Positions 33,566 through 52,071 of a DNA stretch of 64,000 nt are shown one piece after another (positions within the stretch are counted from its first letter, which is position 1; the number at the start of each line of letters is the position of its first letter). Below the pieces are notes generated by a model that worked only from the letters and a program-made list of their open reading frames with translations, was not told where the DNA came from and did not search any database. Source of the stretch: Candidatus Omnitrophota bacterium (lineage in GTDB: Bacteria > Hinthialibacterota > Hinthialibacteria > Hinthialibacterales > JAKPRU01); NCBI GenBank assembly GCA_029570205.1, contig JAKQSI010000070.1:53254-117253 (forward strand), read 5' to 3'. The position numbers and the translations under genes were made by a program.

Positions 33566-33585
33566 ATTCCGGCTTTCGCCGGAAT
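33566..33585. repeat. Family-A hairpin ATTCCGGC-TTTC-GCCGGAAT followed by GACGGCT
   Basis: Perfect inverted repeat with a 4-nt loop. Related copies at 41346-41365 (opposite orientation), 47932-47993 (tandem) and 51924-51943. Confidence 0.7.
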
Positions 33586-33625
33586 GACGGCTCTTGTCTC
33601 CTCTTGCATTGGAGGAACCTCTTTT

Positions 33626-33662
33626 CTCCCTCTCCCACCGGGAGAGGGTTGGGGTGAGGGGA
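33626..33662. repeat. Family-B element: hairpin CCCTCTCCC-acc-GGGAGAGGG followed by TTGGGGTGAGGG
   Basis: Copies with compensatory stem changes at 42870-42915, 48034-48073, 49141-49172 and 58366-58403. Confidence 0.7.
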
Positions 33663-33733
33663 TGTTCACCGTGTTCACTCTGTCCACCCTTCTCCCACGG
33701 TCTGAGTGCGATGAGAATTTCTTCCTCCCCCAT

Positions 33734-33777
33734 AAAAAATCCTCCGGTCGGAACAATTTCCAACCGGAGGATTTTGG
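33734..33777. terminator. Bidirectional rho-independent terminator between convergent genes
   Basis: AAAAAA then ATCCTCCGGTCGG (loop aacaattt) CCAACCGGAGGAT then TTTTGG: 12 bp paired stem flanked by an A-run and a T-run. Confidence 0.6.
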
Positions 33778-33814
33778 TCACCGCAAGAACCGATTACTCA
33801 CATCGGCATCTGGC

Positions 33815-35269
33815 TCAGTGGAGCTCCCAATCGGAGACCCCTGTGCCCTTAGCGGGATTCGGGAACACACTTACCACGCAATCGCTATTGCCGAAGGCTT
33901 GGGTTCCCCACGCGAACGCAACGAACTCATTGTTCATACCCGGCATGAGCTGGCCCGGCTTTCCACCTTTATCCGGGGGGAATTCCGGCAGATTGTGCGG
34001 AATGAAAGCATCCGTGGCCGGTGTACCATCGGCATTGAATACGCGAGCGACCGTGCACTCCATAAAGGTCACATCGTCCGCATAGCCATCTTGCCAGGAG
34101 ACAGCAAAGGAACCGTTGGGAGCCATCGCCACACGGTTGCGGCCCAAGCCACGTGTTTCGCTATGTTGAGAAACCAGGATCGGCGGGCCGATCGGGTCCC
34201 CGCTGGCGTTCCACAGCTGTGCCAGAACCACCCCGACTCCAGCCAGTTCCGGAAGCGGTGCGAATCCATCGGGGATTGTGGCTCCCTCGTGAACGGTCAC
34301 CCATAAGTCGCCACCGCAGGCTTCCATCCAGGTAGCCCCGGCATTCAACATTGAATCCCGAATCGGGAATTTACTACCCAACAGGCTGCCGTTGTTGTCA
34401 TAGAACTCGGCTGTGACACCGTTGTCCGAATCGCTGAACATTACGACGAAACCGTTGGCCAGCGCTCCGCAACGAATCCCCTCCTGTTTTCCGGTCACAT
34501 CATTGGTGAAAAACTCATCTTTGAATCGAGACCCATCGGAGTTGAAGATATTGATGGTTGCGACCTTGTTATTATTTGATGAGTAGTCGGGATCGCCCTC
34601 ATATCGGTGATTCTGGCAGTTGGTGACAATGACGAATTTTCCGTCATTGAGCCAGCAACAATCCCAATCCCGGTGCCCGGCGCTGAACTGAGAAATCGAA
34701 ATCGGTCCGGTGATCGGCTGAAGATTTCCATCGAACAACATGAAGAATCCATGCCCCTGGCCGTCGTCTTCTACAATTCCGTCCGCGTCGATCACGGTCT
34801 CCGGAATTATGACGTTTGAGTTGGTCAAACTGCTGGCTGTCCAAGTTGCCGCGGCCAGGAACACATTCTCACCACGCTTGTTCTTGCACAGTGTCCAGTT
34901 TGTATTCGCGCCTGTGTTGACTCCAACAATTATATCCGCCGCACCGCCATCTGTGAAGACGGGGAAGATACGGTTGCCGTTTCGATCCATTCCACTTACA
35001 TGGTGACTGCCGCCACGGTTTACCCAGAACACGACCGTAGTTCCGTTGTCCAGGACGCACAGTTTCTGCTCCCGGTCATCGTTGGAGGTCTGGCCCAGCA
35101 TCATCGGAACTTCAGTGTGAATCGGCGCCAATGGGGGTGTCAACTCCGCATACGTGGGAGTATCGTCCTTGTAAGTGATCGGCGAACCGATCGGTTGACT
35201 GAACGCCACGGGAACCGCAAACGCGCAGATCCCAACAATGAAAAACGTAAAACTCTTCTTCATGTTCAT
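33815..35269 (-). CDS. Secreted hypothetical protein (Sec signal peptide; repeated DG/NG beta-strand-like segments, possibly propeller or beta-sandwich)
   Basis: Start MNMKKSFTFFIVGICAFAVPVAFSQ with AAGGAG RBS; the upstream 63 aa of the ORF-track call are probably non-coding. Confidence 0.55.
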   Translation of the reverse strand: MNMKKSFTFFIVGICAFAVPVAFSQPIGSPITYKDDTPTYAELTPPLAPIHTEVPMMLGQTSNDDREQKLCVLDNGTTVVFWVNRGGSHHVSGMDRNGNRIFPVFTDGGAADIIVGVNTGANTNWTLCKNKRGENVFLAAATWTASSLTNSNVIIPETVIDADGIVEDDGQGHGFFMLFDGNLQPITGPISISQFSAGHRDWDCCWLNDGKFVIVTNCQNHRYEGDPDYSSNNNKVATINIFNSDGSRFKDEFFTNDVTGKQEGIRCGALANGFVVMFSDSDNGVTAEFYDNNGSLLGSKFPIRDSMLNAGATWMEACGGDLWVTVHEGATIPDGFAPLPELAGVGVVLAQLWNASGDPIGPPILVSQHSETRGLGRNRVAMAPNGSFAVSWQDGYADDVTFMECTVARVFNADGTPATDAFIPHNLPEFPPDKGGKPGQLMPGMNNEFVAFAWGTQAFGNSDCVVSVFPNPAKGTGVSDWELH

Positions 35270-35709
35270 AGTCTCCTTACCTATTTTTGTTTTTTCGTGA
35301 GTGTGCCGAATTTCCTCGCACGGTGGTCTTTTTTCACCTCCTCTCCGTCCCCAAACGGGAACAGGACCTCCTTCCGGAAACAGCAGCACAGTCGAATCAT
35401 AGCACATTTCGATACCCGATACTACCATGAACGATAAAATTATTACTTTTATTTCCATTTTTTCCGGAACAGAAGGGAAAATTACGTATTAGGAATTGGA
35501 AAAAAGGGACGGGCACGGATGGGGACAGGAGCGGACTGAATCACGAAAACGCGAAGAAAACGTGGGAATATGAAAAAAAAAGAAGAAATGGAGGACAAAA
35601 GGATCTGTTGCAAGCAGAATACTGACCGGGAAATACCCTCGCGCCGAAGAAAAGCAATGGGGACCGGGATGCGGCCCCTGATGCCGGGTTTCGCAGGAAT
35701 ATCCCTGAA

Positions 35710-37011
35710 TTATGCGCAGACAGCCTTGCGTTCTTCCGCTGTCATTTCATGGATTTTGCGTAACAGCGCCTCTTCTTCAGGCCCCATTTCCATATCCCGT
35801 CTGGACACAACCCTCCTGGCCACCTCGATGAACTTGTCCACGCGATACTCCATCACGCGCTTGGCCACCTGGATGAACTTGTCTGCTCGATACTCAACAA
35901 ATCCATCCGGACCGCCCCAGCAGAAAGACGGCACATACGTGGGCGGCAAACCGGAGCCATAGATGTTGCATCCGATCCCGATGACGGTTCCAGTGTTCAA
36001 CATGGTGTTGATTCCGGTTTTGGAATGATCGCCGATGGTGCATCCGACAAAAAGGCTGCCGGTGTCGATCCGTTCGCCGTTGATTGTGACTTTCACAGTT
36101 CCATATTCATTCTTCAGGTCGCTGTTATTCGTGTTTGCCCCGAGGTTGACCCATAAGCCCAGGTAAGCATGTCCGAGAAAGCCATCATGCTGCTTGTTTG
36201 AATAGCTGTGAATAATGGATTCCTCGACCTCGCCGCCCACTTTGCAGACCGGACCGATGCTGGTCCCTTCGTAAATCTTCGCGCCGATTTTGATCGCGCT
36301 TTTTTTGCCGACATAAGTCGGCCCTTCAATTACGGCGTTCGGGAAGATTTTCGCATCTTTGTCGATAAAAACCGGTCCCTCTTCCGCATCGATCACCGTG
36401 CCAGGCGTCACTTTCGCGCCCGCCGCGATATAGACATGCTCTCTCCCCAGAATGTGAACACCTTCGTAAACTGTACCTTCAATCTCTCCCGGCCTGGCCA
36501 GGGTCCTGAATTCCCGAACGATCTCTTTCGAGTTGTTTTGAACCAGATTCCACGGATACTTAAGAACCGGATAGTCGACCTCGATTTTCTCTACTTGCGG
36601 CAGGCGATCCAATGTGATCGGTTGGGTCCAATCGACCGCAGCCAGGTTCGCGCCGGACAGACGTGCCGCAATGACCGTATCATCCCTCACGAAAATCTTG
36701 TCGGGTCCCTCGATCCGTATGTTCTGGCCGAACTCTTCATACCACAAGGCGCGACCATTAACCAGAAGTGCGTTCTCCGCCTTGCATTCGTTGACCGGAC
36801 AGTTGATCTTTCTGTAGCCGAGATATTCTTTCAGAAACGGCTCCAGAAGTTTCCGGACATGATACACAAAAGCGGCTCTCGGATAGGCGGCCTGAATCTT
36901 TTCTCCCAGCATCCTGATTCCGCACCGAAGTGAGTACACAGGATTATTCAACGTAAGCGGGTAGAAATTTCGATACCCCTCGTCTTCGAAAAGTACGACG
37001 TGCCCAGCCAT
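35710..37011 (-). CDS. Left-handed beta-helix (hexapeptide-repeat) protein, GlmU-C-terminal/sugar-nucleotidyltransferase-like
   Basis: Multiple [LIV]-G-x-x-x-x hexapeptide repeats in the C-terminal half; internal 15-aa tandem duplication near the C-terminus. Confidence 0.55.
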   Translation of the reverse strand: MAGHVVLFEDEGYRNFYPLTLNNPVYSLRCGIRMLGEKIQAAYPRAAFVYHVRKLLEPFLKEYLGYRKINCPVNECKAENALLVNGRALWYEEFGQNIRIEGPDKIFVRDDTVIAARLSGANLAAVDWTQPITLDRLPQVEKIEVDYPVLKYPWNLVQNNSKEIVREFRTLARPGEIEGTVYEGVHILGREHVYIAAGAKVTPGTVIDAEEGPVFIDKDAKIFPNAVIEGPTYVGKKSAIKIGAKIYEGTSIGPVCKVGGEVEESIIHSYSNKQHDGFLGHAYLGLWVNLGANTNNSDLKNEYGTVKVTINGERIDTGSLFVGCTIGDHSKTGINTMLNTGTVIGIGCNIYGSGLPPTYVPSFCWGGPDGFVEYRADKFIQVAKRVMEYRVDKFIEVARRVVSRRDMEMGPEEEALLRKIHEMTAEERKAVCA

Positions 37012-37157
37012 CTATGTTTTCCTCCTGTGGGACGGATTTTGATCGTTTTTCAAACTTCCCCGCAATCTGTCGTTCCCATCCTGCAGGGGTTCCCATCCTG
37101 CAGGGGCAAGGCATGCCTTCCCCCTGCCAAATGCCTTCCTCTATGCGTTACAACCTC

Positions 37158-37928
37158 TTATTCCGGTTTGTTGTTATAGACCCATTTATAGTAATCCTTC
37201 AGTTCGAGTTGGGAGGCGGCAGCCTCATCGAGGACGAAGATAGCTCTGGGATGAGTTTGCAGGACGGAGGCAGTCACCATGGCGGTGACAGGTCCTTCGA
37301 TGGCCTTCTTGATGGTCGCGGCCTTTTTACTGCCGTTGCAGAGCAGCAGGCAGATTCGCGCTTCCATGATCGTTCCGACACCCATGGTGAGGGCATACCG
37401 GGGGACATCCTCTATCTTTTCGAAGAATCGCGAATTGTCGTTGATGGTTTCCTGCGTCAATGTTTTCATGCGTGTGCGCGAAGCCAGGGAAGAGCCCGGC
37501 TCATTGAATGCGATATGACCGTCTCCGCCGATGCCGAGAACCTGCAAGTCGATCCCGCCTGCCTCGTCGATCTGTTCCTCGTACCATTCACAGTGCGCCT
37601 CCGGATCTTCCGCCATGCCGTCGGGGACGTGGACATTCTGCGGCGACAAATTGATATGATTGAACAGATTATCGTGCATGAAATAGTGATAGGACTGGTC
37701 GTGGGTCCGCGGGAGGCCGATGTATTCGTCCAGGTTGAACGTGATGACCTTGGAGAAATCCAGCCCCTCTTCCTTGTACATGCGAATGAGTTCTTTGTAG
37801 AGACCGATAGGGGTGCTGCCGGTGGCCAATCCCAACACGCAGTTGGGCTTTCTGCGTACGAGAGAGGCGACGATTTTCGCCGCTTCTCTACTCATTTCGT
37901 CATAATCGGCCTTGATGATGACTTCCAT
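37158..37928 (-). CDS. nagB: Glucosamine-6-phosphate deaminase
   Basis: Start MEVIIKADYDEM with GGAG RBS; NagB motifs (LGLATGSTP, GIGGDGHIAFNEPGSS). Confidence 0.9.
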   Translation of the reverse strand: MEVIIKADYDEMSREAAKIVASLVRRKPNCVLGLATGSTPIGLYKELIRMYKEEGLDFSKVITFNLDEYIGLPRTHDQSYHYFMHDNLFNHINLSPQNVHVPDGMAEDPEAHCEWYEEQIDEAGGIDLQVLGIGGDGHIAFNEPGSSLASRTRMKTLTQETINDNSRFFEKIEDVPRYALTMGVGTIMEARICLLLCNGSKKAATIKKAIEGPVTAMVTASVLQTHPRAIFVLDEAAASQLELKDYYKWVYNNKPE

Positions 37929-38472
37929 TCTGATGCTCCGTTTCTTCTGTGGGAATTGCGTGATACCTCTGAGTTTGATTCGCGACAAATCGGAAGTATA
38001 ATCGGCTTTTTCTCCTGTTCGCTAGGGAAGAATATCGGACAACGGATTGCAGTCGGCAGAGTTTAAAAAAAAGAAGACTGGCCCCAAGCTCCGCTTCGGT
38101 ACCAGCCTCAAAAGCTTCAGAAGGTTTTTGGTTAGCTCCGCTAACGTTCGTTCCTTCGAAACTCTCGAAGGTTTGAACGATCTCGGGCGTTCACTCGTTG
38201 TCCGTCCGAGACCACTCCAACCTTCATATCTACAGCACCCAACCCTTTTTTAGCAACTGCAATGCCAAAAAGCGGAATGGTCGATTCCGCGAGGCTTCTA
38301 TGGTTCATAACATGCAGAGTATTAAGGAGTTAGAATCAGGTATCCCCATGGAAATCCCGAATGGGTTTCCGTAATGACAGGTGGAATGAAGACAGGAATT
38401 TCTTGCCGTTCGATATGGGGCAGATGAGACGTTTGCCGGAACAATACCCGGCCTTTGGAACTATCGAAGCGC

Positions 38473-38964
38473 CTATTCCGCCAGGGCCTTCATAATTCTG
38501 GGTGGGAGAAGCCAGACCAATTCCATTTCCCCCTCGGATAGCTGAACCCGCGCAACGCCTCCCTTTTTCATCCACACTCCGCCTCGGTGGTGACCACAGG
38601 TGGCGAAGGAGACAAAGCGCGAGAACGCCGGATCATGCCCCACAAGCACGACACAGTCCTTTTTTGTTTTCTGCGCGACCTCCAGAAGGTCCTGAGGGCT
38701 TGCGTCCGGTCCGAGGCGCTCATCCTCCATCAATCCCTCCGAGGGGATCCCAAAGGCTTCCGCGACGATCTCAGCGGTCTGCCTGGCCCGTACCAGCGGA
38801 CTACTGATGATCGCCCCCGGTTTTTCCAGAATCCGCTGCAACCCTGTCGCGATTCTTTCCATGTCTCTGATCCCCTCGGATGTCAGTGCGCGCTCGGCAT
38901 CGAATCGAACGCCCGGACTGCCGAGCGGTTCGGCGGCTGCATGACGGATCAGCACGATATCCAT
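38473..38964 (-). CDS. sixA: Phosphohistidine phosphatase SixA (histidine-phosphatase superfamily)
   Basis: MDIVLIRHAAAE with RHA catalytic-motif start; ~160 aa. Confidence 0.75.
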   Translation of the reverse strand: MDIVLIRHAAAEPLGSPGVRFDAERALTSEGIRDMERIATGLQRILEKPGAIISSPLVRARQTAEIVAEAFGIPSEGLMEDERLGPDASPQDLLEVAQKTKKDCVVLVGHDPAFSRFVSFATCGHHRGGVWMKKGGVARVQLSEGEMELVWLLPPRIMKALAE

Positions 38965-38967
38965 GGT

Positions 38968-39615
38968 TTACTCCTTTGTGCTTGTGGCGCCCGGCGGTGT
39001 TTCTCCCATCCGTTTGAGAGCCTCTTCGGCGGCTTTCCGAACCTCTTCATAGTGGTCCAGAGTGGCCTCTTGGATCATTTCGAGCGCCCTGGGATCACCG
39101 ATTTCCCCCAGGGCCTTGATCGCGGCGGCACGAAGAGCGGATTCCCGGGGGCCGCGGCGACCCGCCATCAGCAGAAGATCCTCCACCGCTTCCCTTGCTC
39201 CGAGTCTCCCCAGCATCATGGCAGCCATCATGTAATAAGGGGTCTCTTTCCGTTCCCAAATCTGTTCCATGGAATGACGATTTCCCATACGGACGATTTC
39301 CAGCAGGGGATCAACCGCTGTGAATCCATACTCCAGAATCTTTTCCATGCGGGGAAAGACCTCGCGGGATGGCGGCGGCTGGCCTTCCTGGGACCGTGCC
39401 AGGTACCAGGCGAACATCTTGTCGATTGCATCCAACGCCTCTTTTTCCTCGGTAGAGAATTTTTTCGCGTCGATCTCATTGAGCAGCGGGTGCTTGCAGT
39501 CCCCGTGAGATTCTTTCCAACTTTTCTTTTCATCCGTGAGTGTGCATGAGATGGCCAGGATTGTTATCAGCGCAAGACGCCATCCGAACGGAATTGCATC
39601 AGGAAGACTTTTCAT
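38968..39615 (-). CDS. HEAT-repeat lipoprotein
   Basis: Signal/lipobox LALITILAISCT; C-terminal HEAT repeats (ALGEIGDPRALEMIQEATLDHYEEVRKAAEEAL); 4-nt gap to sixA. Confidence 0.6.
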   Translation of the reverse strand: MKSLPDAIPFGWRLALITILAISCTLTDEKKSWKESHGDCKHPLLNEIDAKKFSTEEKEALDAIDKMFAWYLARSQEGQPPPSREVFPRMEKILEYGFTAVDPLLEIVRMGNRHSMEQIWERKETPYYMMAAMMLGRLGAREAVEDLLLMAGRRGPRESALRAAAIKALGEIGDPRALEMIQEATLDHYEEVRKAAEEALKRMGETPPGATSTKE

Positions 39616-39998
39616 CGGTTTGGTATCCTATCTATTCCCCCTCGGTTCCCGTATTTGGGATTGTACCGGCCCTGCTCTCGGAATCTATCGCGCATGTCAC
39701 GCCTATTCCCGAAGCGGAGATAGCTTTCAAAAATATCCCCCGTTCCCGAGACACGCAGGTCCTTTTGTTCCTGCAGCAGAGTGTTCAGTTTACCTTGGTG
39801 TTCCCGGCGCCGGACTCGCGCGTGTACTTCTTCCCTGGGATTCTCGAATTTTCCCGACGCCAAGAGGATATTCGGGCGCTCTCTGTCTTTCTCTGCCTGT
39901 ACGGAGATTGAGAAAGGACGTCGAGCAAAGGCGGTCATCAGTCCCGCTCCTGCGCAGACTGTGCCTTTCAGGAACCGGCGTCTTTTTATTATGCCCAT
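39612..39998 (-). CDS. Small (128 aa) TAT-signal protein, R/E/K-rich, function unknown
   Basis: MGIIKRRRFLKGTVCAGAGLMTAFA twin-arginine signal; AAGGAGA RBS 6 nt upstream; stop overlaps the start of the HEAT lipoprotein (ATGA). The 298-aa ORF-track call starting at 40508 is not supported. Confidence 0.45.
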   Translation of the reverse strand: MGIIKRRRFLKGTVCAGAGLMTAFARRPFSISVQAEKDRERPNILLASGKFENPREEVHARVRRREHQGKLNTLLQEQKDLRVSGTGDIFESYLRFGNRRDMRDRFREQGRYNPKYGNRGGIDRIPNR

Positions 39999-40077
39999 CG
40001 GAATCTCTCCTTCGGCTGATGGGACCAATTTTAGGCTGCACTTGTACAATGTCAATAACGATGGAGAAACGCGGCGC

Positions 40078-40106
40078 TTGACAGATCTGCGGATAAAAGT
40101 TACAAG
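40078..40106 (+). promoter_or_regulatory. Candidate promoter TTGACA-N17-TACAAG upstream of the URO-D-family gene
   Basis: Same hexamers and spacing as at 16779-16807. Confidence 0.35.
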
Positions 40107-40235
40107 AAGAGGTCCTGGTGGCGAATTGGCCATGTTACAACCCTCACCCCAACATTTTCTTCCGGTGGGAGAGGGACGCATCCGGGTGGGTGTCGGACTC
40201 GCCCGTACTTTTGACACAGCAGAGTGTGCGCCGCC

Positions 40236-41327
40236 ATGAATTCCAAGGAACGTGTACATCGTGCGCTGCGACGGGAACCGGTGGACCGGGTTCCTGTGTT
40301 TATGTGGTTTCATCCGGAGACCGCGAAACGGTTCGCGGCTCGGCTCGATATTCCGGTCAGTCGCCTGCCGGAGGCCATGGGGGATGATATCCGGCAGACT
40401 TGGGTGAATAACAACTACGCCATGGAGGGCATTGTTCATCAATACAACGGTGAGTCGCATGTCGATGAATGGGGAGTTCGGTGGGTAAAGGACGGTCCGT
40501 TTAACCAAGCCGTTGAATTTCCCCTGGCGAACCTGAGCGCGGATGAGGTTCGGGCGTATCGCTTCCCGGTGGATCGCCTGGAGTACCTCCTGTCGCTAAT
40601 GAACCCCATTCTTGCGCAGCGCGAGGACTATTTCATCGGCTGCGATGTTTCGCCGTGCGTGTTTGAGATGTACTGGCGTCTGCGCGGCATGGAGCAGACG
40701 CTGTTGGATATTGCGCTGGAACCGGAACTCACACGGGACATGTTCAACCGATGCGCCGAGTTTGCACGGCTTCTCTCTAAAGAGGCCTGCAAGCGGTTCC
40801 CGCTGGACTGGCTGTGGACGGGCGACGACGTGGCCGGGCAGGAGGGCCTCCTGTTCAGCCGTAACCGGTGGCGCGACCTTGTTATGCCGGGCCTCGCGCG
40901 GATATTCGCCGTCGGCAAGGAACACCACTTGTGGGTCGCCTGCCATTGCTGCGGCGCGCTCTACCCGATTATCGCCGACCTGATCGAGATCGGCCTGGAT
41001 GTTCTCAATCCCATCCAGTGTAACTGTAGAGGAATGAACCCGTTCGACTTGAAGCGTGAATTCGGCGACCGCCTCGCATTTATGGGCGGCGTGGATACAC
41101 AACAACTCCTGCCGTTCGGAACAGCGAAAGAAGTTCGGATGGAAACCGAGCGGTTGATGGATGGAATGACTACAGACGGTGGCGGCTACATTTTAGCCGC
41201 ATCCCACACCATCCCTCCGGAAACGCCGGATGAGAATATCTTTGCGCTCTACCAGGCTGCGGGAATCGGTCGGGAGGAGATCCTGGACCGCGCGGCAGAG
41301 ATACGGAAGTCCTGTGGCGCCGATTAG
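40236..41327 (+). CDS. Uroporphyrinogen-decarboxylase (URO-D) family protein, MtaA/CmuA-like methyltransferase type (paralog of 11620-12585)
   Basis: MNSKERVHRALRREPVDRVPVFMW start and URO-D fold motifs. Confidence 0.75.
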   Translation: MNSKERVHRALRREPVDRVPVFMWFHPETAKRFAARLDIPVSRLPEAMGDDIRQTWVNNNYAMEGIVHQYNGESHVDEWGVRWVKDGPFNQAVEFPLANLSADEVRAYRFPVDRLEYLLSLMNPILAQREDYFIGCDVSPCVFEMYWRLRGMEQTLLDIALEPELTRDMFNRCAEFARLLSKEACKRFPLDWLWTGDDVAGQEGLLFSRNRWRDLVMPGLARIFAVGKEHHLWVACHCCGALYPIIADLIEIGLDVLNPIQCNCRGMNPFDLKREFGDRLAFMGGVDTQQLLPFGTAKEVRMETERLMDGMTTDGGGYILAASHTIPPETPDENIFALYQAAGIGREEILDRAAEIRKSCGAD

Positions 41328-41390
41328 CAACGTGTCTCAGCCGTCATTCCGGTGAAAGCCGGAATCCTCGCAGCGCGGCAGGGCGTATAT

Positions 41391-41419
41391 GTAGATCGCA
41401 GGGCGCCCCTGCGATCTAC
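41391..41419. repeat. 13-bp-stem hairpin GTAGATCGCAGGG-cgc-CCCTGCGATCTAC between convergent genes
   Basis: Perfect inverted repeat, extendable by AT pairs to 15 bp. Shares the GTAG...CTAC termini and upstream TATATGT with the 47271-47298 palindrome. Confidence 0.6.
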
Positions 41420-41462
41420 ATGTACGATCTTGGCCGCCCCTCCTCTCTACCCATTCTCTACC

Positions 41463-42728
41463 TCATTGCTTGATTCCCGCCGGGACCGGGCAACTGTCTA
41501 CAAACGCGAGCGCCTTTTCGATATAGATTTCCCCCGTCATCTCCCCGAGACTTGTGCGCGAAATGTACTCATAACGTTTAAAACTGTTAAAATCGACCTT
41601 TGTCAATATGTAGCCAAATGCGTCATTCGTCAAGCCAAAAAGGAAGTTGCACTCCCCGTGCATCTTTCGTTTCAAATAGTAGCCGATATTCGGCAGGGCT
41701 TCCCCCGGAATGGTCAGTATTTGCGCATGGCCCAGGTTGATCACATTCACCTGGGTAGACACCGTTGCATCCTGACCCAGTTCGTACCCCAGAGGAGAAT
41801 TGCGTACAATTGCGCGCATCATGGGCGAGTCGATCGGAAAGACAATCTGTGTTGCGGCACAAAAGAGATCCGGGTCTTTTTGTACAGGAGCATCGGCGAT
41901 AATCCGAAGGCTCTCATCCGCGAGCAAGTTCCCGATACGGACACATTCCTCCCACGTCTGCACATCCTTCCCGTTTGCTCCTCGGCAGTCTGCCGTCACC
42001 ATCCCGCCCTGAGCGCTGTTCATAAATATCCCAATTCCACCGCCCCTTTCGGCGATTCGATCATATAACGGCCCGACCAGGTCCGGACTGAGAATCTTGC
42101 GGTCCGGTCCCAGGACTTCGGGATGGATTGCATAGTTCACCAACGTGGCGACAGGCGTTCCGTCCTCCCGAAGACACTGGAGAACATTACAACGCCGGTC
42201 GTATAATTGCTCCGCATAGTAGTTGTATGCAATTTTGCCCCTGGCCTCGCCTGTCGCGATTTTAATAGAAACCGGCTGCATCCGGCTTAAGGCGTCTTCG
42301 ATGGCCCCTGCGGTCTCTTTGCATACCCGCTCCAGGTAGTTCACATCTGCGCCACAATTGCCTTTTTCATCTGCGAATCCATAGCAATCCGGAGCGCTGT
42401 GCGTGTGCGTTGCGCCGATCAAGATATTCTCCGGCGGTATGTCCTTTACCATCGCGCGTACCCGATTTCCCAAAACAGCCGGGAAACCGAGGAAATCGGT
42501 GGCGACAATCGCGACGGTTGTATGGTCGTTTTTCAGGACCAATGCCCGCACCGTTAATTCGCCTATCTTTGTTTCAACAGGCTCGGACGGGCCGACACCG
42601 CCGGAAATCGGTAATAACGGGTCTGGGGTAACAATACGAAATGCGATACCGGCCTGGAAATCTGCGAAGGCGGATAGACACGAGAATAGAACGACAATCA
42701 CAGCGGAGACAATGATGTATTTCTTCAT
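41463..42728 (-). CDS. Secreted neutral/alkaline ceramidase-like amidohydrolase (paralog of 18165-19559)
   Basis: Signal peptide MKKYIIVSAVIVVLFSCLSAFA; IGATHTHSAPD motif. Confidence 0.7.
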   Translation of the reverse strand: MKKYIIVSAVIVVLFSCLSAFADFQAGIAFRIVTPDPLLPISGGVGPSEPVETKIGELTVRALVLKNDHTTVAIVATDFLGFPAVLGNRVRAMVKDIPPENILIGATHTHSAPDCYGFADEKGNCGADVNYLERVCKETAGAIEDALSRMQPVSIKIATGEARGKIAYNYYAEQLYDRRCNVLQCLREDGTPVATLVNYAIHPEVLGPDRKILSPDLVGPLYDRIAERGGGIGIFMNSAQGGMVTADCRGANGKDVQTWEECVRIGNLLADESLRIIADAPVQKDPDLFCAATQIVFPIDSPMMRAIVRNSPLGYELGQDATVSTQVNVINLGHAQILTIPGEALPNIGYYLKRKMHGECNFLFGLTNDAFGYILTKVDFNSFKRYEYISRTSLGEMTGEIYIEKALAFVDSCPVPAGIKQ

Positions 42729-42967
42729 TTTTTTGAACACCTCGATATTCGCGTAGAGGCAATTCGTGAATTGTGCCAACACATTCGTGAATTGTCCCTA
42801 CATATATGTCTTCCGGTTTCTGCCACCGGCAAGATGCCTGTGCCACCCTCTTTTTCCTCCCCTCTCTCCTACTCTCTCCCCCTCTCCATACTTGGAGAGG
42901 GGGCCGGGGGGTGAGGATTTGGGGGCAGGATTTCCCCAAGGGCCGGGATCAAGGACCTCTGTAATCA

Positions 42968-43861
42968 TTACGTCAAAAACCGCGATGCCGTGTCAATCGC
43001 TTTCTGCGCCGTCAGTAACGGATCGGCGTCCTGGATTTCCTTGTTGAATAACTCGACGGAAAAATAGCCGTTGTATTTTTTTCCCCTTAATCCACGAAGA
43101 ATGTCTGTTATGGGGATGACCCCCTCCCCGGGAAAGACGCGATCCTTATCGGCAAGAATCTCGCGGGGACCGCCGGGGGCATCGTGGAAATGGACATGTT
43201 CCAGTTCGCCCTCACGAAGGAGATCCAAATCCTCCATTTTGCTCTGTCCGATCCAGAAATGGAAAAAGTCGAACAGGGGACGCACATTGGGATGGTCTGC
43301 GCCCCGCGTTAAAGACAGCGCGGTCGGTAAAGTTCCCATAAACCGCTGCATTCGGATAAACTCGATAACAATAATTACACCGAATTCCCGGCCGATTTCG
43401 CCCAGCTGCCGCACGTTCTCGACGCCGCGCTTGTAATCATCCAGCGTGTATTGTTCCTGCGTAAAGGAATGGACAACAAAGCGTTCAATGCCGAGCGCGC
43501 CGACCAGTTCCAGATTCGCTTTTAGTTGCTCGACCCGCTGATCGTGATCCTCGCGAGGCTCGATCAGTTCCCCCATGCAGCAGGAGCAGGGAGCATGAAG
43601 TCCCAGATCCGAAAGGAGCTGCTTTGCCGTGGAGACCGACTCTTTCTCCACATAAGGACGGATTTTGTGAATCCAGGGTTCGACATGGCGAATTCCCGCC
43701 TTGGAGTATGCCTTCATGCACACATCGAAATCGTGCGACATGGAGGAAGATTCGTTCAAGCAGAGCCTCTCGGCATACGCGGGGGATTGTGAATCCGCCA
43801 GGGAGTCTGTCATAGCAAGTCCTGCCATGCCGGTGTATTTCAAAAAATTACGTCTGTCCAT
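42968..43861 (-). CDS. TAT-exported sugar phosphate isomerase/epimerase (xylose-isomerase-like TIM barrel)
   Basis: MDRRNFLKYTGMAGLAMT twin-arginine signal; AP-endonuclease-2/xylose-isomerase-like fold motifs. Confidence 0.8.
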   Translation of the reverse strand: MDRRNFLKYTGMAGLAMTDSLADSQSPAYAERLCLNESSSMSHDFDVCMKAYSKAGIRHVEPWIHKIRPYVEKESVSTAKQLLSDLGLHAPCSCCMGELIEPREDHDQRVEQLKANLELVGALGIERFVVHSFTQEQYTLDDYKRGVENVRQLGEIGREFGVIIVIEFIRMQRFMGTLPTALSLTRGADHPNVRPLFDFFHFWIGQSKMEDLDLLREGELEHVHFHDAPGGPREILADKDRVFPGEGVIPITDILRGLRGKKYNGYFSVELFNKEIQDADPLLTAQKAIDTASRFLT

Positions 43862-43891
43862 TGTGTCCTGTTCCTTTAATTGAAATCAGAA

Positions 43892-46117: not shown

Positions 46118-47142
46118 AATGCCGTCTCCCGGACTGTTTCGACGGCGATCTGTTCGGCTAATTCCTCACGGAGTGCGATAAGAGTCCCGCGAACACGGTA
46201 TGCGATCGGAGTTCCGAGCGGGTTCTCCAGTTCGGCCCGGAGGACGGTTCCGGGGACGATCCCCAGATCCATGAGGCGACGACGTTCCAGCCCCCGGCAC
46301 TTGGGGGACAGGGAGAGGACACGGGCCGCCTCGCCGATGCGGAGCGAGGCGAGCGTGGCCTGCGAACGCTCCGGCTTGTCTTCTTTGGGCAGTTGCCGCA
46401 CGGTAATGAGCGCGGCGACCTCCGGGGATAGGACATGCTCGTCTTCCTGGGAAACAAAGCGAAGCCGTTTATCTGTCTTTTCAAGAATGCGCATCTGCAT
46501 TCCGGGGTAGATCCCTTCAGCGACCAGCTGGGAATACAGTTCCGGCGGTTCATCCTCGATATGTGTTACAGCGACAGCATCGCCGACGGAAAATGTGACA
46601 ATGGCAGAACCGACGGGAGGCGAAATCTCGCCGTTCTCGGTGGGAATGGGGTCGCCGTGAGGATCATACAGGGGATTGCCGAGGCGATACGCCAGGTCCG
46701 CAATCTCCTCGGGCGTGGCGGTATGTTCGCGGGCATGGGCCATGGTGTGCCATTCAGAGTTGGGGAAACCGGTCTGGTCCGCGAGAAATCGTTCCCAGAG
46801 ACGGTGCGCGCGGACAATGCGGGAGGCGTAAGCGTTTCCCTCGGCGGTCAGGCGGGGAAGGCCCTTCTCAAGGGTAAGAAGACCGCGCAATTCCATGCGT
46901 TTCAGTAAGTCCTCTACAGCGCCGTGTGATAGAGGAAGATCCTCGGTAAGGCTGTCAATCGTTGCGGTTTGAGAGGCGCATTCTTTGTTATAGAGGTGTT
47001 TTAGCGCGTCCTCGATGTGGATACGCTCGGATTCTCTCTGCAACCGGGAGAGACGGCTCAGGAGGCCGCTTTTCGGCCAGAGAATCCAGGCCAGAACAGC
47101 GAGGAACCCGATACCGATCAGCAAGAGCGCGCCAGGATGCAT
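46114..47142 (-). CDS. Membrane-anchored DtxR/MntR-like metalloregulator domain fused to two FeoA (SH3-like) domains
   Basis: N-terminal TM helix MHPGALLLIGIGFLAVLAWILWP, DtxR-like HTH and dimerisation region, two FeoA-like repeats. The ORF-track start 36 codons upstream is less likely. Confidence 0.7.
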   Translation of the reverse strand: MHPGALLLIGIGFLAVLAWILWPKSGLLSRLSRLQRESERIHIEDALKHLYNKECASQTATIDSLTEDLPLSHGAVEDLLKRMELRGLLTLEKGLPRLTAEGNAYASRIVRAHRLWERFLADQTGFPNSEWHTMAHAREHTATPEEIADLAYRLGNPLYDPHGDPIPTENGEISPPVGSAIVTFSVGDAVAVTHIEDEPPELYSQLVAEGIYPGMQMRILEKTDKRLRFVSQEDEHVLSPEVAALITVRQLPKEDKPERSQATLASLRIGEAARVLSLSPKCRGLERRRLMDLGIVPGTVLRAELENPLGTPIAYRVRGTLIALREELAEQIAVETVRETAL

Positions 47143-47270
47143 GAATCCTGCCTTTCCGAGAGTATGCGGAAAAACAATTTGCGCACAGCTTATGAGATTT
47201 GATGAGGAGGATTCAAGGGGAAATCGCCTGTTCCCCCCTATATGTGGCACGGGCGTTCCGCCTGTGATTT

Positions 47271-47298
47271 GTAGGGGCGCACGGCCGTGCGCCCCTAC
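47271..47298. repeat. 28-bp perfect palindrome GTAGGGGCGCACGGCCGTGCGCCCCTAC upstream of the DtxR-FeoA-feoB operon
   Basis: Read directly from the sequence; candidate terminator of the upstream gene and/or operator. Confidence 0.6.
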
Positions 47299-47334
47299 GC
47301 CCTGTCATTTCCGATTCCGCAATCCACAATCGGA

Positions 47335-47859
47335 TTACTCAATCTCAAACAACTCTTCCGCCTTCATTTTGAAAATCCGGAGGCCGCCTTCTTCCACGTC
47401 AACCCCTTCATCCGTCCATTTCTTCAGCAATTCTTTGGTGGAGGACTTGAGGGTGTAAGTGACTTTGTTATCCGTACCGTTTTGCGAAATGGTCACTTTG
47501 AACTCATCGGCCTGGACATGCCGAATGTTCTTCTTGCCCATGGTTGCGCCGGTTGCTGCCTGAAGGCCATCGATGATGCAAGATCCGGGTGGCTCCGCCG
47601 GGCATTCCACCACCACGGTCAAACCGAAATACTTCGGGATTTTATGCACAGTCACCGCATGTTCGCCCATGCGTGCCCCCATTGCCACATTCGGTCCCAG
47701 ATGTCCATGGAATCTTTCCAGTTCCTCTACGGTGACGGGGTGAAACTCCACTTTGGAGTGCATCTCCGTGTGGGAATGCGTTTCCGTTTTTGATGCGGGA
47801 ATGGTCATGGTGAGTAATCCTAACGCTGTGATCGGAATGAATAACGCCCAGGTTTTCAT
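47335..47859 (-). CDS. Secreted FmdE-family protein (formylmethanofuran dehydrogenase subunit E-like domain)
   Basis: Signal peptide MKTWALFIPITALGLLTMT; FHGHLGPNVAMGARMG resembles the FmdE HGH motif; GGAGG RBS. Confidence 0.5.
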   Translation of the reverse strand: MKTWALFIPITALGLLTMTIPASKTETHSHTEMHSKVEFHPVTVEELERFHGHLGPNVAMGARMGEHAVTVHKIPKYFGLTVVVECPAEPPGSCIIDGLQAATGATMGKKNIRHVQADEFKVTISQNGTDNKVTYTLKSSTKELLKKWTDEGVDVEEGGLRIFKMKAEELFEIE

Positions 47860-47931
47860 TTTTGCCTCCGAACGATTGGTTTCATTTGTGTTCCACAGGC
47901 TGGAAACCTGTGCCATCCACTTTATGGACGC

Positions 47932-47993
47932 TGAATGACGGCTTTCGCCGGAATGACGGCTTTCGCCGGAATGACGGCTTTCGCCCGGATGAC
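47932..47993. repeat. Three tandem 18-nt units GAATGACGGCTTTCGCCG (family-A half-hairpin units)
   Basis: Contiguous direct repeats; each GCCGGAAT...ATTCCGGC junction can refold as the family-A hairpin. Confidence 0.7.
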
Positions 47994-48033
47994 CGTAGGG
48001 GCAGCCTGTGCAACCTTCCGGAGATCGCCTCTT

Positions 48034-48073
48034 CCCCCCTCTCCATGCCTGGAGACAGGGCCGGGGGGTGAGG
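48034..48073. repeat. Family-B element (CCCCTCTCCA-tgcc-TGGAGA, then CAGGGCCGGGGGGTGAGG)
   Basis: Same architecture as 33626-33662 and 42870-42915. Confidence 0.65.
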
Positions 48074-48081
48074 AAATAATC

Positions 48082-49068
48082 CTACCTCACAATCCGCAAT
48101 CCCCCTCCGCCGACAAGACGTTTGACCTCATCCGGGGTGCACCAGTTCACATCCCCCGGCACGGAATGTTTAAGAGCGGAAAACGCAACACCCCAATCGA
48201 TGCCTTTCTGAACATCCCCATCTTGCAGATACCCATACAGGAATCCTGCCGAGCAGGAATCTCCGCCACCCACACGATCCACAATCTCCACCTCGTAAGT
48301 CCTGGTCTTGTAAACCTTGCCGTCATGCAGGGCGATAGCCGTCCACTTGTTTCGCCAGACGCTCAGGTCTTCGCGAAGGGTAATCAGGACCAATTCAAAA
48401 CCGAATCGATCGTGGAGTTTCCGGGCCACTTCCTCGTAATCTTTTCCCTCGATCTTGAACACCCGCATGGTGTCCTCCTCGGTGGTGATGAGGATATCGG
48501 TATACTTCATAGCCATGGTCATGCACTCCTGCGCTTCCGCCTCGGTCCATAACTTCGCGCGATAGTTCAGGTCGATGCTGACCTTGACCTTGTTCTGTTT
48601 GGCCTTTTCGAGGGATTCCAGGAACGCCTCACGGGCGGTGGGGGAGAGCGCTGCCGTGATGCCGCTTGTGTGGAACAATTTGGCGCCCGAAAGCGCGGCG
48701 TCCCAATTCACTTCGCCCTTTTTGATCCGCGAAATAGCCGAATCTTTGCGGTCATATATGACATTGGACGGTCGCGGGCTGGCTCCGAACTCCAGGAAAT
48801 ACAATCCGGCGCGGTCTTCTTTCGTCCATACGACATGGGAGCAATCCACACCATGCTCGCGCGTTTTGTTGACGATCATCCGTCCCAGGGGATTCGTCGG
48901 TACCCGGGTGACAAACGCCGACGACATTCCCAAGCGGGCGACCCCAATAGCCACATTGAACTCCGCGCCCCCGACTCTAACATCCAGGGTTGCAGTCTGT
49001 TCCAGCCGGTTGAAATCCGGCGGCGACAAACGAACCATTGCCTCACCAAACGTAACTACATCAGCCAT
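48082..49068 (-). CDS. kdgK: PfkB-family sugar kinase, 2-dehydro-3-deoxygluconokinase-like
   Basis: PfkB motifs (GGAEFNVAIG, GGGDSCSAGFLYG); AAGGAG RBS. Confidence 0.8.
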   Translation of the reverse strand: MADVVTFGEAMVRLSPPDFNRLEQTATLDVRVGGAEFNVAIGVARLGMSSAFVTRVPTNPLGRMIVNKTREHGVDCSHVVWTKEDRAGLYFLEFGASPRPSNVIYDRKDSAISRIKKGEVNWDAALSGAKLFHTSGITAALSPTAREAFLESLEKAKQNKVKVSIDLNYRAKLWTEAEAQECMTMAMKYTDILITTEEDTMRVFKIEGKDYEEVARKLHDRFGFELVLITLREDLSVWRNKWTAIALHDGKVYKTRTYEVEIVDRVGGGDSCSAGFLYGYLQDGDVQKGIDWGVAFSALKHSVPGDVNWCTPDEVKRLVGGGGLRIVR

Positions 49069-49257
49069 GAAACCTCGCTCCTTTCTATCTATTTCAAAGG
49101 ACTATCCAGCATTCCATACCTGAACAATGTGACTTCTTCTCCCTCTCCCGCCGGAAAGGGTCGGGGTGAGGGTGTCTCCGGGCGCCACCGGCATCTTGCC
49201 GGTGGACAAGTCTCCCTCTCTCATCCCCATCGGTCCTATTCATCCTGCCCGGTTCTC

Positions 49258-49905
49258 CTACGACCGCGCCTTCCTGACCTCTTCAATAAACCGCCGCGCA
49301 TTCTCTGTAATGGTGGCCCAGTCCCGGTCGGCGATGGCCTTTTTGGGAACCAGATTGCCGCCGACTGCGATGCAGCACGCGCCGCAGCGGATAAACTCGC
49401 CCGCGTTCGACAGGTCTACTCCGCCGGTCGGCGAAAGGCGAATGTGCGGCAGCGGCCCCTTGATATCCTTGAGATATTTCGGCCCGACCGCCGTCGCCGG
49501 AAAGACTTTCACGATATCCGAGCCGCACTCCCAGGCGGTCAGAATCTCCGTTGGAGTGAATGCGCCGGAGATCATCACCTTGCCGTATCGTTTCGCCATT
49601 TCGATAGTCGCCGGATTGAGAGTCGGTGTGACAATATACTCCGCACCTGCCAGGATCACCGCGCGCGCCGTTTCGGGGTCCAGCACAGTCCCAGCGCCCA
49701 TAATGACTTTGCTCCCCATTTCCGCGGCCACCGCCTTGATGACATCCATCGCGCCGGGAGTGGTCATGGTGACTTCGAGCGCCACCAGCCCTCCCTGAAC
49801 CAGCGCGTCGGCCACCTCCGTCAGTTCCTCGCTTCGGTCCGCTCGGATCACGGCGATCACACCGGACTCAATAATGGTATCCAACACCTGTTGCTTTCGA
49901 TCCAT
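49258..49905 (-). CDS. eda: 2-dehydro-3-deoxyphosphogluconate/4-hydroxy-2-oxoglutarate aldolase
   Basis: KDPG aldolase motifs (GVIAVIR, EVTMTTPGA, KVFPA); AAGGGAGA RBS. Confidence 0.85.
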   Translation of the reverse strand: MDRKQQVLDTIIESGVIAVIRADRSEELTEVADALVQGGLVALEVTMTTPGAMDVIKAVAAEMGSKVIMGAGTVLDPETARAVILAGAEYIVTPTLNPATIEMAKRYGKVMISGAFTPTEILTAWECGSDIVKVFPATAVGPKYLKDIKGPLPHIRLSPTGGVDLSNAGEFIRCGACCIAVGGNLVPKKAIADRDWATITENARRFIEEVRKARS

Positions 49906-50050
49906 GAATTTCTCCCTTCGTCGGGTCAAAATGCCTGGACTGATCTTCCCGCTCTCCTGCTATGTTGTGAAGGATACGGCATATAGAGGATGGCGGTTTT
50001 TGCGAGGAAAGGGTACAGTGGAAACTGGTCATACCGGAGAGGCAGGCCCC

Positions 50051-50779
50051 ATGTCCAAACCGAATATCCTTGGCGCGTGGAGAATTGTTCAGGGTTCCGG
50101 GTCTATCCAGGAAGACCCGACGACCGGAGAGTACCGCATTCGGGCCGGTGGTTCTCTTGTTGTTCGCAGTTTCGATCATCCACCCTTTGAGGCGGAGCGG
50201 TATGCGGTTGCGGAGGTAGCGATTCAGGCCGACACGGATGGAGTACTCCATCTTGCCTGGGAGCGCTCCGGCGGCAAGATCGACGGTTCCCTGTCACAGG
50301 CGATTCGCGGCGGTCATCGCCATGTCGCACGATTTCCGGTTTACGTGGACCCCGGATGGACCCATGAAATCCTTGCCGTTCGTCTGCGGTTGCCGGAGGG
50401 ATTATCGAAGGGTGTCCTGGGACCGTTCTATCTTTATGCGTTCTCCGATTTAGATCCAAAAGAGCTTCAAAAATTCGCGACGCTTTCCGCGAGGGTCTCT
50501 CTCGTGGAGAACAAAGGATTGAAAGTCTCTGTCCAATATACTGGTGTTTACCTTGCGCCGGTGGAGTCGGAGAAATGGATTCAGGTGAGTCTGTTGGATG
50601 ATACGGGCCATGAGAATATCTCTGTGGCCAGGGCGACCCACGGTAATTATGATGCTCGGTATATCCATACGGAGTTCTTCTTTCCTGAAATGGACCGTGT
50701 CTGGGATGCGAATGTGTATCTGCTCGACAACGGCACCGGTTACAGTCTTGTCTGCCGTGCCCGCCCCGAACCGAAATAA
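50051..50779 (+). CDS. Hypothetical protein (243 aa), divergent from eda
   Basis: Start MSKPNILGAWRIV with GGAGAGG RBS. The ORF-track N-terminal extension and the antisense ORF 50103-50852 are discounted. Confidence 0.4.
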   Translation: MSKPNILGAWRIVQGSGSIQEDPTTGEYRIRAGGSLVVRSFDHPPFEAERYAVAEVAIQADTDGVLHLAWERSGGKIDGSLSQAIRGGHRHVARFPVYVDPGWTHEILAVRLRLPEGLSKGVLGPFYLYAFSDLDPKELQKFATLSARVSLVENKGLKVSVQYTGVYLAPVESEKWIQVSLLDDTGHENISVARATHGNYDARYIHTEFFFPEMDRVWDANVYLLDNGTGYSLVCRARPEPK

Positions 50780-50854
50780 GGGCGTTGGTTCCCGCAAAAA
50801 AACAAATCATGGTAGATTTCGCGCTGAGCTTCATCAAAGAAGGGAGTCCCATTC

Positions 50855-51859
50855 ATGACATTACGGATTGGAATTATTGCTTTAGGCAAAATCAGTGAAC
50901 GAACGCATCTGCCTCTGTATAAAGAGGTGAGGGGAGTGCAAGTTGTGGCCGCATGTGACCCCGACGAAGAACGCGCCCTGCTCATGCAGGATCAATTCAA
51001 AATCCCGCGCATTTACAAGTCCTATCAGGAGATGTTTGCCCACGAGGAACTGGATGCGGTTTCGGTCAACAGCCCGCACCGGTTTCACGCGGAACAGGCC
51101 GTCGCCGCCGCAAAGCACGGGCTTCATGTTCTTGTCGAAAAACCCATGGCGCTTTCTGTGAAAGATATTCGCGCCATGATCGCCGCCTCCAGGAAGGCGG
51201 GAAAAGTTCTGATGGTCGAACAGTTCATGCGTTTTCATCCGGCGGTGTATAAGGCCCGCGAAGTGATCCAGTCCGGGAAACTCGGCAAAGTCCTCACGAT
51301 TCGCGGGCATTTCGGTCATGCCGGGCCGGAATACTGGTCGCCGGAGGGCAAGTGGTTCCTGCAGAAAAAAGAAGCGCAGGGTGGAACGATGCTGGATATC
51401 GGTGTGCATGAGATTGACCTGATGCGCTATATCTCCGGCAAGCAGGTGGCTCAGGTTGCCGCTTTCCTGGGGACTCTGAAGAAGAAAATCGATGTGGAGG
51501 ACAACGCGGTTGCGATCCTGCGGTTCGATGACGGAACCCTTGGGACGCTGGAATCCTCCTGGACAAATGATCCGGGCAACTGCCGCACGGAGTTCTATTG
51601 CGAGAAAGGGAACCTGGAGATGAATCTTTCCGGGAAAGATCCCCTGGTGATTTATCGTCCCAACAAAACACCTCAGCCGGTCTCTCTGGCAAAAAAACAT
51701 CCCGAAAAAAGCCCGATGGCCTATTTTGTGAAATGTATCCGAGAGGGTCTGGTTCCACATTGCGATGGTGTAGAGGGTGGCAAAAGTTGCGCCGTGGTCC
51801 TCATGGCCGCCATCTCCGACAAGGAGAAAAGAATCGTCAAAGTCCCGGAAATCGGGTGA
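50855..51859 (+). CDS. Gfo/Idh/MocA family NAD(P)-dependent oxidoreductase
   Basis: IGIIALGKIS Rossmann motif, VEKP motif; AAGGGAG RBS. Confidence 0.85.
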   Translation: MTLRIGIIALGKISERTHLPLYKEVRGVQVVAACDPDEERALLMQDQFKIPRIYKSYQEMFAHEELDAVSVNSPHRFHAEQAVAAAKHGLHVLVEKPMALSVKDIRAMIAASRKAGKVLMVEQFMRFHPAVYKAREVIQSGKLGKVLTIRGHFGHAGPEYWSPEGKWFLQKKEAQGGTMLDIGVHEIDLMRYISGKQVAQVAAFLGTLKKKIDVEDNAVAILRFDDGTLGTLESSWTNDPGNCRTEFYCEKGNLEMNLSGKDPLVIYRPNKTPQPVSLAKKHPEKSPMAYFVKCIREGLVPHCDGVEGGKSCAVVLMAAISDKEKRIVKVPEIG

Positions 51860-51863
51860 TTCG

Positions 51864-51898
51864 ATTGTGGATTGCGGATTGCGGATTGCGGATTGCAG
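51864..51898. repeat. Five tandem heptads GATTG(T/C)G immediately after the oxidoreductase stop
   Basis: The reverse complement CGCAATCC(A/G)CAATC recurs at 47306-47322, 48087-48100 and 29286-29300. Confidence 0.6.
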
Positions 51899-52071
51899 GA
51901 TAACAGGGAGGGGCGCAACCGTCATTCCGGCGAAAGCCGGAATCCAGCGTCCACACGCATAACGCTCGTGATAGCCTTTCTACTTCGAATAGCAGGACGG
52001 TTCCATTCCGTCCGCTATGTCCACTCTCCGACTCCTCCAAAAAATAAAAATCAAAAATTTCGAAAAAAAGC

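Follow-up and report, generated by a model that had tools for sequence, protein, structure and literature searches.

CGTC-tagged repetitive extragenic palindromes (REPs) are short hairpin units with an unpaired CGTC end, where TGTC or CCTC is also allowed, and an unpaired tail that fits CCA (Di Nocera et al, 2013, BMC Genomics 14:522; PMC3733652). In this survey, the stem measures 8 bp in families 1 and 2, its first two pairs being A-T, and the loop is 4 nt in family 1; CGTC-1 was equated with the dRS3 of Neisseria and the RPE-6 of Rickettsia, and Rickettsia RPE-4 was classed as CGTC-4. The repeats were reported from five phyla, mostly as head-to-head dimers located downstream of genes, between unidirectional or convergent open reading frames (ORFs), the head-to-tail form being negligible. 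They come without a dedicated transposase: genes for the REP-associated tyrosine transposase (RAYT) and for IS200 exist in CGTC-bearing species, and none of these genes is bordered by CGTC units (PMC3733652). We analysed a family of hairpin repeats on a 64,000-nt stretch of a metagenome-assembled genome (MAG) of Candidatus Omnitrophota (contig JAKQSI010000070.1, positions 53,254 to 117,253), called the window hereafter. Its copies are very probably dRS3-like members of the CGTC-1 family.

The explanation that we consider likely for the whole set of observations is that the window holds CGTC-1 REPs that were copied in trans and would act as hairpins in 3′ untranslated regions (UTRs), one of which expanded into a tandem array by slippage. 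The sequence identity of the units, their boundaries, their intergenic placement, the selection for stem pairing, the lineage-specific gain and loss of copies and the absence of a linked transposase are each well supported.

CGTC-1 units in the Omnitrophota window

We searched the window with the 20-mer ATTCCGGCGAAAGCCGGAAT, allowing up to three mismatches, and obtained six matches for 0.03 expected by chance; none of 100 shuffled windows reached six. Alignment of the copies with their flanks, together with a repeat finder, defined a repeat unit of 29 nt, CCGTC-ATTCCGGC-GAAA-GCCGGAAT-CCAG. The matches fall in five sites, namely three canonical copies, an array of 18-nt repeats and a decayed copy (Table 1), all between 33.5 and 52 kb. 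The CGTC tag is found in the three canonical copies and in the full units of the array, and the loop is GAAA in all window copies. Two canonical copies have the ATTCCGGC/GCCGGAAT stem and the CCAG tail, and the third (41341-41369) combines a ATTCCGGT/GCCGGAAT stem with a CCTC tail. Four assemblies (two MAGs from NCBI, one assembly from ENA and one from JGI) carry the locus with 100% identity along 10-21 kb that comprise the array, and therefore reveal neither population polymorphism nor variation in array length. The named homologue closest to the locus is a Candidatus Omnitrophota MAG, at ~70% identity.

Most elements of the preliminary description, made from the sequence alone, hold with some adjustments. 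The three cores are found where it had placed them (33566-33585, 41346-41365 and 51924-51943), the second with one mismatch. It had marked the second core as inverted, which is correct relative to the 33566 copy; note that the 51924 copy has the same orientation as the 41346 one, and that the array shares the orientation of the 33566 copy. The perfect 8-bp stem closing a GAAA loop is present in two canonical copies and is lost in 41346-41365, whose closing pair is G.T. The reported flank, GACGGCT or CAACCGTC, is real and corresponds to the CGTC tag, and the threefold 18-mer array is also called by Tandem Repeats Finder, with a period of 18 and 3.4 copies. The copies had been placed at gene ends, often between convergent genes, and this is what we observed, with 33562-33590 and 41341-41369 in convergent spacers and 51919-51947 and the array in co-directional ones. 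Two features did not figure in that description, the decayed copy at 35681-35700 and the 113-nt palindrome at 12804-12917.

We assign these units to CGTC-1 because they match its definition feature by feature: the tag, an 8-bp stem starting A-T/T-A, a 4-nt loop, the CCA tail, a location downstream of genes and no flanking transposase (PMC3733652). The predominance of head-to-head dimers is likewise found across genomes (see below), whereas the window differs by its singletons, its head-to-tail 18-nt array and its host, an uncultivated lineage. The gonococcal unit CCGTCATTCCCGCGAAAGCGGGAATCCAG and the window unit CCGTCATTCCGGCGAAAGCCGGAATCCAG differ only at stem pair 6, by a compensatory exchange of G.C to C.G. 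The window unit thus has the 29-nt organization of Neisseria dRS3, including tag, loop and CCAG tail, but departs from the strict ATTCCC-N8-GGGAAT pattern by this one pair, reading ATTCCG-N8-CGGAAT. Unlike in Neisseria, no filamentous prophage is associated with the window copies, no NIME-like array alternates units with 50-150-bp RS elements, and the density is low, with four sites in 18 kb compared to eight units in 830 nt at a Neisseria locus (L164). The window copies also differ, being all intergenic, from Rickettsia RPE-6 and RPE-4, as RPEs are often in-frame inside genes. Lastly, the regularly alternating REP types with defined linker motifs of E. coli-type BIMEs are absent from the window. 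Of the REP/BIME-type nature proposed earlier, the REP part is therefore borne out by the CGTC-1 anatomy, while the mosaic part, BIME or NIME, does not apply to copies that are singletons.

Distribution and conservation of the unit across genomes

We scanned one genome per species, 596 Gb in total, for the exact 24-mer GTCATTCCGGYGAAAGCCGGAATC and found it in at least 120 reference-genome stretches, for 0.008 expected by chance. According to record titles, the matches listed represent about 13 phyla, compared to the five reported in 2013, and the REP is not one peculiar to a single genome. They span Alpha-, Beta- and Gammaproteobacteria, Thermodesulfobacteriota, other “Deltaproteobacteria”, Chloroflexota, Bacteroidota, Verrucomicrobiia, Acidobacteriota and Gemmatimonadales, and also Elusimicrobia, Nitrospinota, Spirochaetia, Binatia, Bipolaricaulota and Saccharibacteria. 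Some of these records are closed chromosomes or come from cultured isolates. The motif is present in finished isolate genomes such as those of Dyella, Sphingomonas and Neisseria. A BLAST search of the unit with a word size of 11 against finished replicons returned Neisseria gonorrhoeae, Azospirillum, Niveispirillum, Sphingomonads, Cupriavidus and Gluconobacter. With Megablast, neither plasmids nor phages matched the unit, the plasmid-collection matches coming from the word-11 search only. The exact 24-mer also occurs in 29 IMG/VR viral contig stretches (L132-L160), with three copies on a single contig (L156, L158); these may represent provirus flanks of host origin, attachment sites or phage DNA proper.

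Conservation extends slightly beyond the search pattern and then stops. In 145 instances, position −1 is C in 78% and position −2 is C or T, while on the other side C (90%), A (86%) and G (61%) occupy positions +1 to +3; positions further out are random, which defines sharp element boundaries. This sharp end of conservation indicates that the element is the 29-nt module, and neither a longer miniature inverted-repeat transposable element nor an adapter. Across genomes, the tag is CGTC in 164 units and TGTC in 40, and the tail is CCA in 166 of these 204. Neighbouring units no more than 250 nt apart are arranged head-to-head in 44 cases (tags outside, spacing mostly 41-118 nt), head-to-tail in eight and tail-to-tail in three.

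The preliminary description had put forward intergenic enrichment as the test of a REP-like element, and the motif passes it across genomes. Using a crude greedy ORF caller, ~66% of the exact instances are intergenic, compared to ~15% of positions drawn at random from these loci; many of those scored as “genic” fall at the very ends of ORFs that are short and doubtful. The spacers defined by this caller are unidirectional in 37 cases, convergent in 23 and divergent in 11. About one third of the instances are called inside ORFs (L002, L025, L036, L039 and others), some of which exceed 1000 aa; these may be in-frame copies, as for Rickettsia RPEs, or gene-calling errors.

We then considered stem variants, collected with only the tag, stem pairs 1 and 2 and the tail as anchors, so that six stem positions are free to differ. 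All six are paired in 32 of the 57 distinct non-canonical variants. Double-sided changes amount to 60, compared to 17.7 ± 3.3 in shuffles, none of the 500 shuffles reaching 60, and the covariation score is 0.32 against 0.11, with all slid registers at or below 0.114. This covariation indicates that pairing in the hairpin is under selection and that stem pairs 3 and 6 can vary freely. Counts of G.U versus A.C mismatches in the variants are too few to be used.

Turnover between relatives and origin of the tandem array

Comparison with relatives provides two cases of filled versus empty sites. Copy 51919-51947 has an ortholog in a relative at 93% identity (L125), where one substitution in an arm breaks the outermost pair, and it is absent at the syntenic loci of two relatives at 85% and 80% identity (L127 and L128). 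The 93% relative lacks the array; its spacer between PfkB and FmdE is 100 nt long, compared to 222 nt in the window, and aligns on either side of the extra DNA. The additional DNA consists of an 89-nt block that holds the array and of a separate 22-nt segment (Table 1). On its two sides, the 89-nt block has direct repeats of 9 nt, reading GCACAGGCT (48003-48011) and GCACAGGTT (47905-47913); this 9-mer forms the left arm of a small hairpin and occurs once in the 93% relative. The 8 nt on the 3′ side of the array, AGCGTCCA, are also the 3′ flank of copy 51919-51947, 4 kb away, which suggests that one of the two was copied from the other along with a few flanking bases. For copy 41341-41369, the spacer (41328-41462) is the exact synteny breakpoint relative to relatives at 86-88% identity (L161, 8647-8662; L163, 2812-2819): there, the spacer is absent and the URO-D-family gene adjoins or overlaps another convergent gene, whose C-terminus is response-regulator-like. 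Owing to this break, the locus offers no empty site for comparison. Besides the one orthologous copy, no unit was found in ~60 kb of sequence from relatives.

The array 18-mer, GTCATTCCGGCGAAAGCC, keeps the tag, the 5′ arm and the loop and is devoid of the GGAAT 3′ arm, which leaves a 4-bp CGGC/GCCG stem. A unit preceded by AGCC, as are two of the three window copies, contains two AGCCG pentamers at a distance of exactly 18 nt (AGCCGTCATTCCGGCGAAAGCCGGAAT). Slipped-strand mispairing between the two pentamers would duplicate precisely GTCATTCCGGCGAAAGCC, and further rounds of slippage would give 3.4 copies while overwriting the 3′ arm. The array junction is found in none of 213 units from other genomes, in keeping with the earlier view that the tandem form is unusual, and has a single match in the metagenome collection, on an unrelated 1.4-kb contig (L131). 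This contig reads cgtc followed by two copies of GTCATTCCGGCGAAAGCC and by GGAATCCA, then an inverted partner, which is the simplest product predicted from slippage. We thus regard slippage as the probable origin of the array, and the tandem form is best seen as a rare, degenerate derivative that arose more than once, rather than as a functional variant. Two other readings of the array were rejected: it is not CRISPR-like, having no spacers and an 18-nt period, and it is not a coding repeat, as it lies outside FmdE, which starts at 47859.

Gene context, possible role and mobilisation

As judged from the Pfam annotation of neighbouring genes, every window copy is intergenic and occupies a short spacer at a gene end. 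Copy 33562-33590 is 89 nt past the stop codon of a sigma-54 activator gene (30875-33472, plus strand) and 224 nt past that of a convergent 547-aa ORF (33815-35458, minus strand), for which an exact-protein look-up found no record. Copy 41341-41369 begins 13 nt past the stop codon of a URO-D-family gene (40224-41327, plus strand), convergent with a ceramidase-like gene (41463-42782, minus strand), and copy 51919-51947 begins 59 nt past that of a GFO/IDH/MocA oxidoreductase gene (50855-51859, plus strand). The array lies between PfkB (48082-49068) and FmdE (47335-47859), both on the minus strand, and the decayed copy is 10 nt past the stop codon of 35710-37011 (minus strand), just before a terminator-like hairpin (35678-35660). 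As RNA, the canonical copies fold at −13.6 (33562-33590, z −3.8), −13.1 (41341-41369, z −2.3) and −15.8 kcal/mol (51919-51947, z −3.3); the decayed copy no longer folds (z +0.2) and the fold of the array is not special (z −0.9). None of the window copies is followed by a T-run, and a terminator scan of the window calls none of them. Separate terminator-like hairpins, 35678-35660 and, on the plus strand, 33599-33616, are located just 3′ of two units, which would place these two units within 3′ UTRs. Rfam gave no match at the copies, either at the gathering threshold or at E ≤ 1.

Table 1. Coordinates of the CGTC units and of other repeat features in the window.
Feature	Position	Strand	Remarks
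ATTCCGGCGAAAGCCGGAAT 20-mer core	33566-33585	minus	exact
ATTCCGGCGAAAGCCGGAAT 20-mer core	41346-41365	plus	one mismatch, so that the closing pair is G.T
ATTCCGGCGAAAGCCGGAAT 20-mer core	51924-51943	plus	exact
Canonical CGTC-1 unit	33562-33590	minus	C-CGTC tag, ATTCCGGC stem, GAAA loop, GCCGGAAT stem, CCAG tail
Canonical unit	41341-41369	plus	ATTCCGGT/GCCGGAAT stem with G.T closing pair, tail CCTC
Canonical unit	51919-51947	plus	
18-nt head-to-tail array, 3.4 copies	47933-47993	minus	Tandem Repeats Finder, 95% matches
Decayed copy ATTCCTGCGAAACCCGGCAT	35681-35700	minus	3 mismatches, tag lost
Extra block holding the array, 89 nt	47914-48002	minus	absent from the 93% relative
Additional extra segment, 22 nt	48012-48033		absent from the 93% relative
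Imperfect palindrome, 113 nt	12804-12917	no strand	CCGTCATT at both outer ends; minimum free energy −65 kcal/mol, z −5.5
Second intergenic repeat family	33624-33660		
Second intergenic repeat family	42872-42917		
Second intergenic repeat family	48029-48074		
Second intergenic repeat family, weaker copies	14447, 25824, 49137		

From these data, we propose that the units are small non-autonomous elements, of which a putative trans-acting activity recognising the tag, the stem base and the tail would place copies at tolerated sites downstream of genes. Once in place, they would be transcribed within the 3′ UTR. E. coli REPs stabilise mRNA as 3′-end barriers. By analogy, the hairpins of −13 to −16 kcal/mol formed by the window units might be mRNA-stabilising barriers at 3′ ends, a role that we put forward tentatively.

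Several observations fit this proposal poorly. The orientation of the units relative to the upstream gene is weakly biased, and not significantly (34 sense, 26 antisense), which leaves a strand-specific RNA role unsupported and cannot separate RNA-level from DNA-level roles. The stem covariation is equally compatible with selection on a single-stranded DNA hairpin or on an RNA hairpin. All window copies are confined to one 18-kb part of the 64 kb, and none of the three canonical ones is part of a head-to-head dimer, the arrangement typical of the family, no inverted partner being present within 150 nt of them. Finally, the non-REP flanks of the array block and its 9-nt duplication fit recombination or template switching as well as transposition.

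RAYT-associated GTAG REPs and REPINs, reportedly described by Nunvar in 2010, Bertels and Rainey in 2011 and Ton-Hoang in 2012, resemble the window units as short tagged hairpins that are intergenic and multi-copy, often found in inverted pairs, and presumed to be non-autonomous mobile DNA. The window units could then be classical REPs or REPINs mobilised by a genome-encoded RAYT, which would cut and copy them in single-stranded form as it does in Pseudomonas or E. coli, and their REP-like behaviour, with a GC-rich hairpin, an unpaired 5′ tetranucleotide tag, intergenic positions at gene ends and gain or loss between relatives, speaks for it. Their tag, however, is CGTC and not GTAG, and no transposase, Y1/RAYT or IS110-type domain is present in the ~40 ORFs of the window. 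Nor does any gene family recur beside the motif when the ORFs around the motif at 149 loci of genomes and viruses (957 ORFs) are clustered, the largest neighbour clusters being generic (ABC transporters, short-chain dehydrogenases (SDRs) and luciferase-like monooxygenases). RAYT-linked REPs are usually lineage-specific and co-evolve with their RAYT, whereas the exact sequence is shared here across phyla. The lack of a linked transposase in the window and at these 149 loci is in line with the 2013 survey, in which CGTC units came without a dedicated transposase (PMC3733652), and argues against the link to a RAYT suggested in the preliminary description; we hold this origin to be very unlikely. 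Slightly less so, though still improbable, is that the units serve mainly as recombination or integration targets for IS110/IS1111-type or phage recombinases. The dRS3 units, one compensatory pair away, serve Nf/MDA prophages as their integration site, by way of a phage transposase, as known from the literature for the filamentous prophages of Neisseria, and REPs are known targets of insertion sequences (PMC3733652); moreover, 41341-41369 lies exactly at a synteny breakpoint and the motif is found on viral contigs. On the other hand, no insertion sequence, prophage or recombinase adjoins any window copy, the neighbours at the 149 loci include no IS110-type cluster, and no half-sites split around an insertion were seen. 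A target role also accounts poorly for the persistence of the units and leaves their multiplication unexplained.

The units could also be ordinary Rho-independent terminators that look alike by accident, as stable GC-rich hairpins downstream of stop codons might suggest, but the absence of T-runs, the negative terminator scan and the separate terminator-like hairpins next to two units make this highly improbable, as do their occurrence in both orientations and a 29-nt identity across phyla that includes the unpaired tag and tail, which terminators would not be expected to show. Chance similarity, misassembly or contamination has a negligible likelihood. The source is a MAG and short tandem arrays can be mis-assembled, but the chance expectations given above are far below the counts, the four assemblies are identical, a relative at 93% carries the orthologous copy with a substitution, and the motif occurs in finished isolate genomes; adapter or vector contamination was rejected as the flanks are unrelated. 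We retain CGTC-1 REPs copied in trans as the likely explanation of the window units.

A possible relative of the family is the imperfect palindrome at 12804-12917, located between two minus-strand ORFs (11620-12804 and 13294-13635) and the only head-to-head-like arrangement in the window. It is possibly a REPIN-like, head-to-head relative of the CGTC units with a different and longer body; its terminus motif, CGTCATTGCGAGGAGCG, is found at none of 163 loci examined.

Other repeats share the spacers or the neighbourhood of the units. Copies of a second intergenic repeat family, which reads CCCCTCTCC-loop-GGAGAGGGG and then GGGG(T)GAGG, are often in spacers that also hold CGTC units (Table 1), and the one at 48029 is orthologous in the 93% relative. 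Near-perfect long palindromes at 41384-41426 (20-nt arms, 3-nt loop) and 33736-33775 (18-nt arms, 4-nt loop) also share spacers with CGTC units and are devoid of a T-run. Directly upstream of copy 51919-51947, a heptamer array (GATTGCG, 51863-51901, 5.4 copies) has complementary matches at 47316-47346; it reaches ~9 copies in the 93% relative (about 1410-1490) and is thus polymorphic in length between close relatives. In L128, a GGAGTGC/GGAATGC array follows PfkB. Elsewhere in the window, two tandem flagellin genes (53219-55624 and about 55908-58313) are unusually long (801 aa) and conserved in relatives (L121, L128), and paralogues are present for the URO-D family (11620-12804, 24767-25903 and 40224-41327) and the ceramidase-like genes (18165-19559 and 41463-42782). 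Short DNA similarities between 13257-13370 and 40300-40757 may be what is left of a module that was duplicated.

In annotations, the label of CGTC-type REPs suits these sites, and not that of a new element, and ORF callers should not translate them (frames SFRRKPES and HSGESRNP). The presence of the exact unit in about 13 phyla among the matches listed, including Chloroflexota, Elusimicrobiota, Saccharibacteria and Bipolaricaulota, is a modest but real extension of the five known in 2013. Filled versus empty sites between close relatives, of which there are two here, are the type of data that could address how CGTC REPs multiply. We consider it unlikely, but worth stating, that the CGTC-1 hairpin represents a pan-bacterial mobile module of orphan status. 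Its copying would then be due to a conserved housekeeping enzyme recognising the CGTC tag, the stem base and the CCA tail, or to an unrecognised class of trans-acting mobilising enzyme that crosses phyla. If this were true, the 89-nt block, with its 9-nt flanking duplication and the 8-nt flank shared with copy 51919-51947, would be a fresh footprint of the mechanism. The real novelty, if any, would lie in how CGTC REPs are mobilised.

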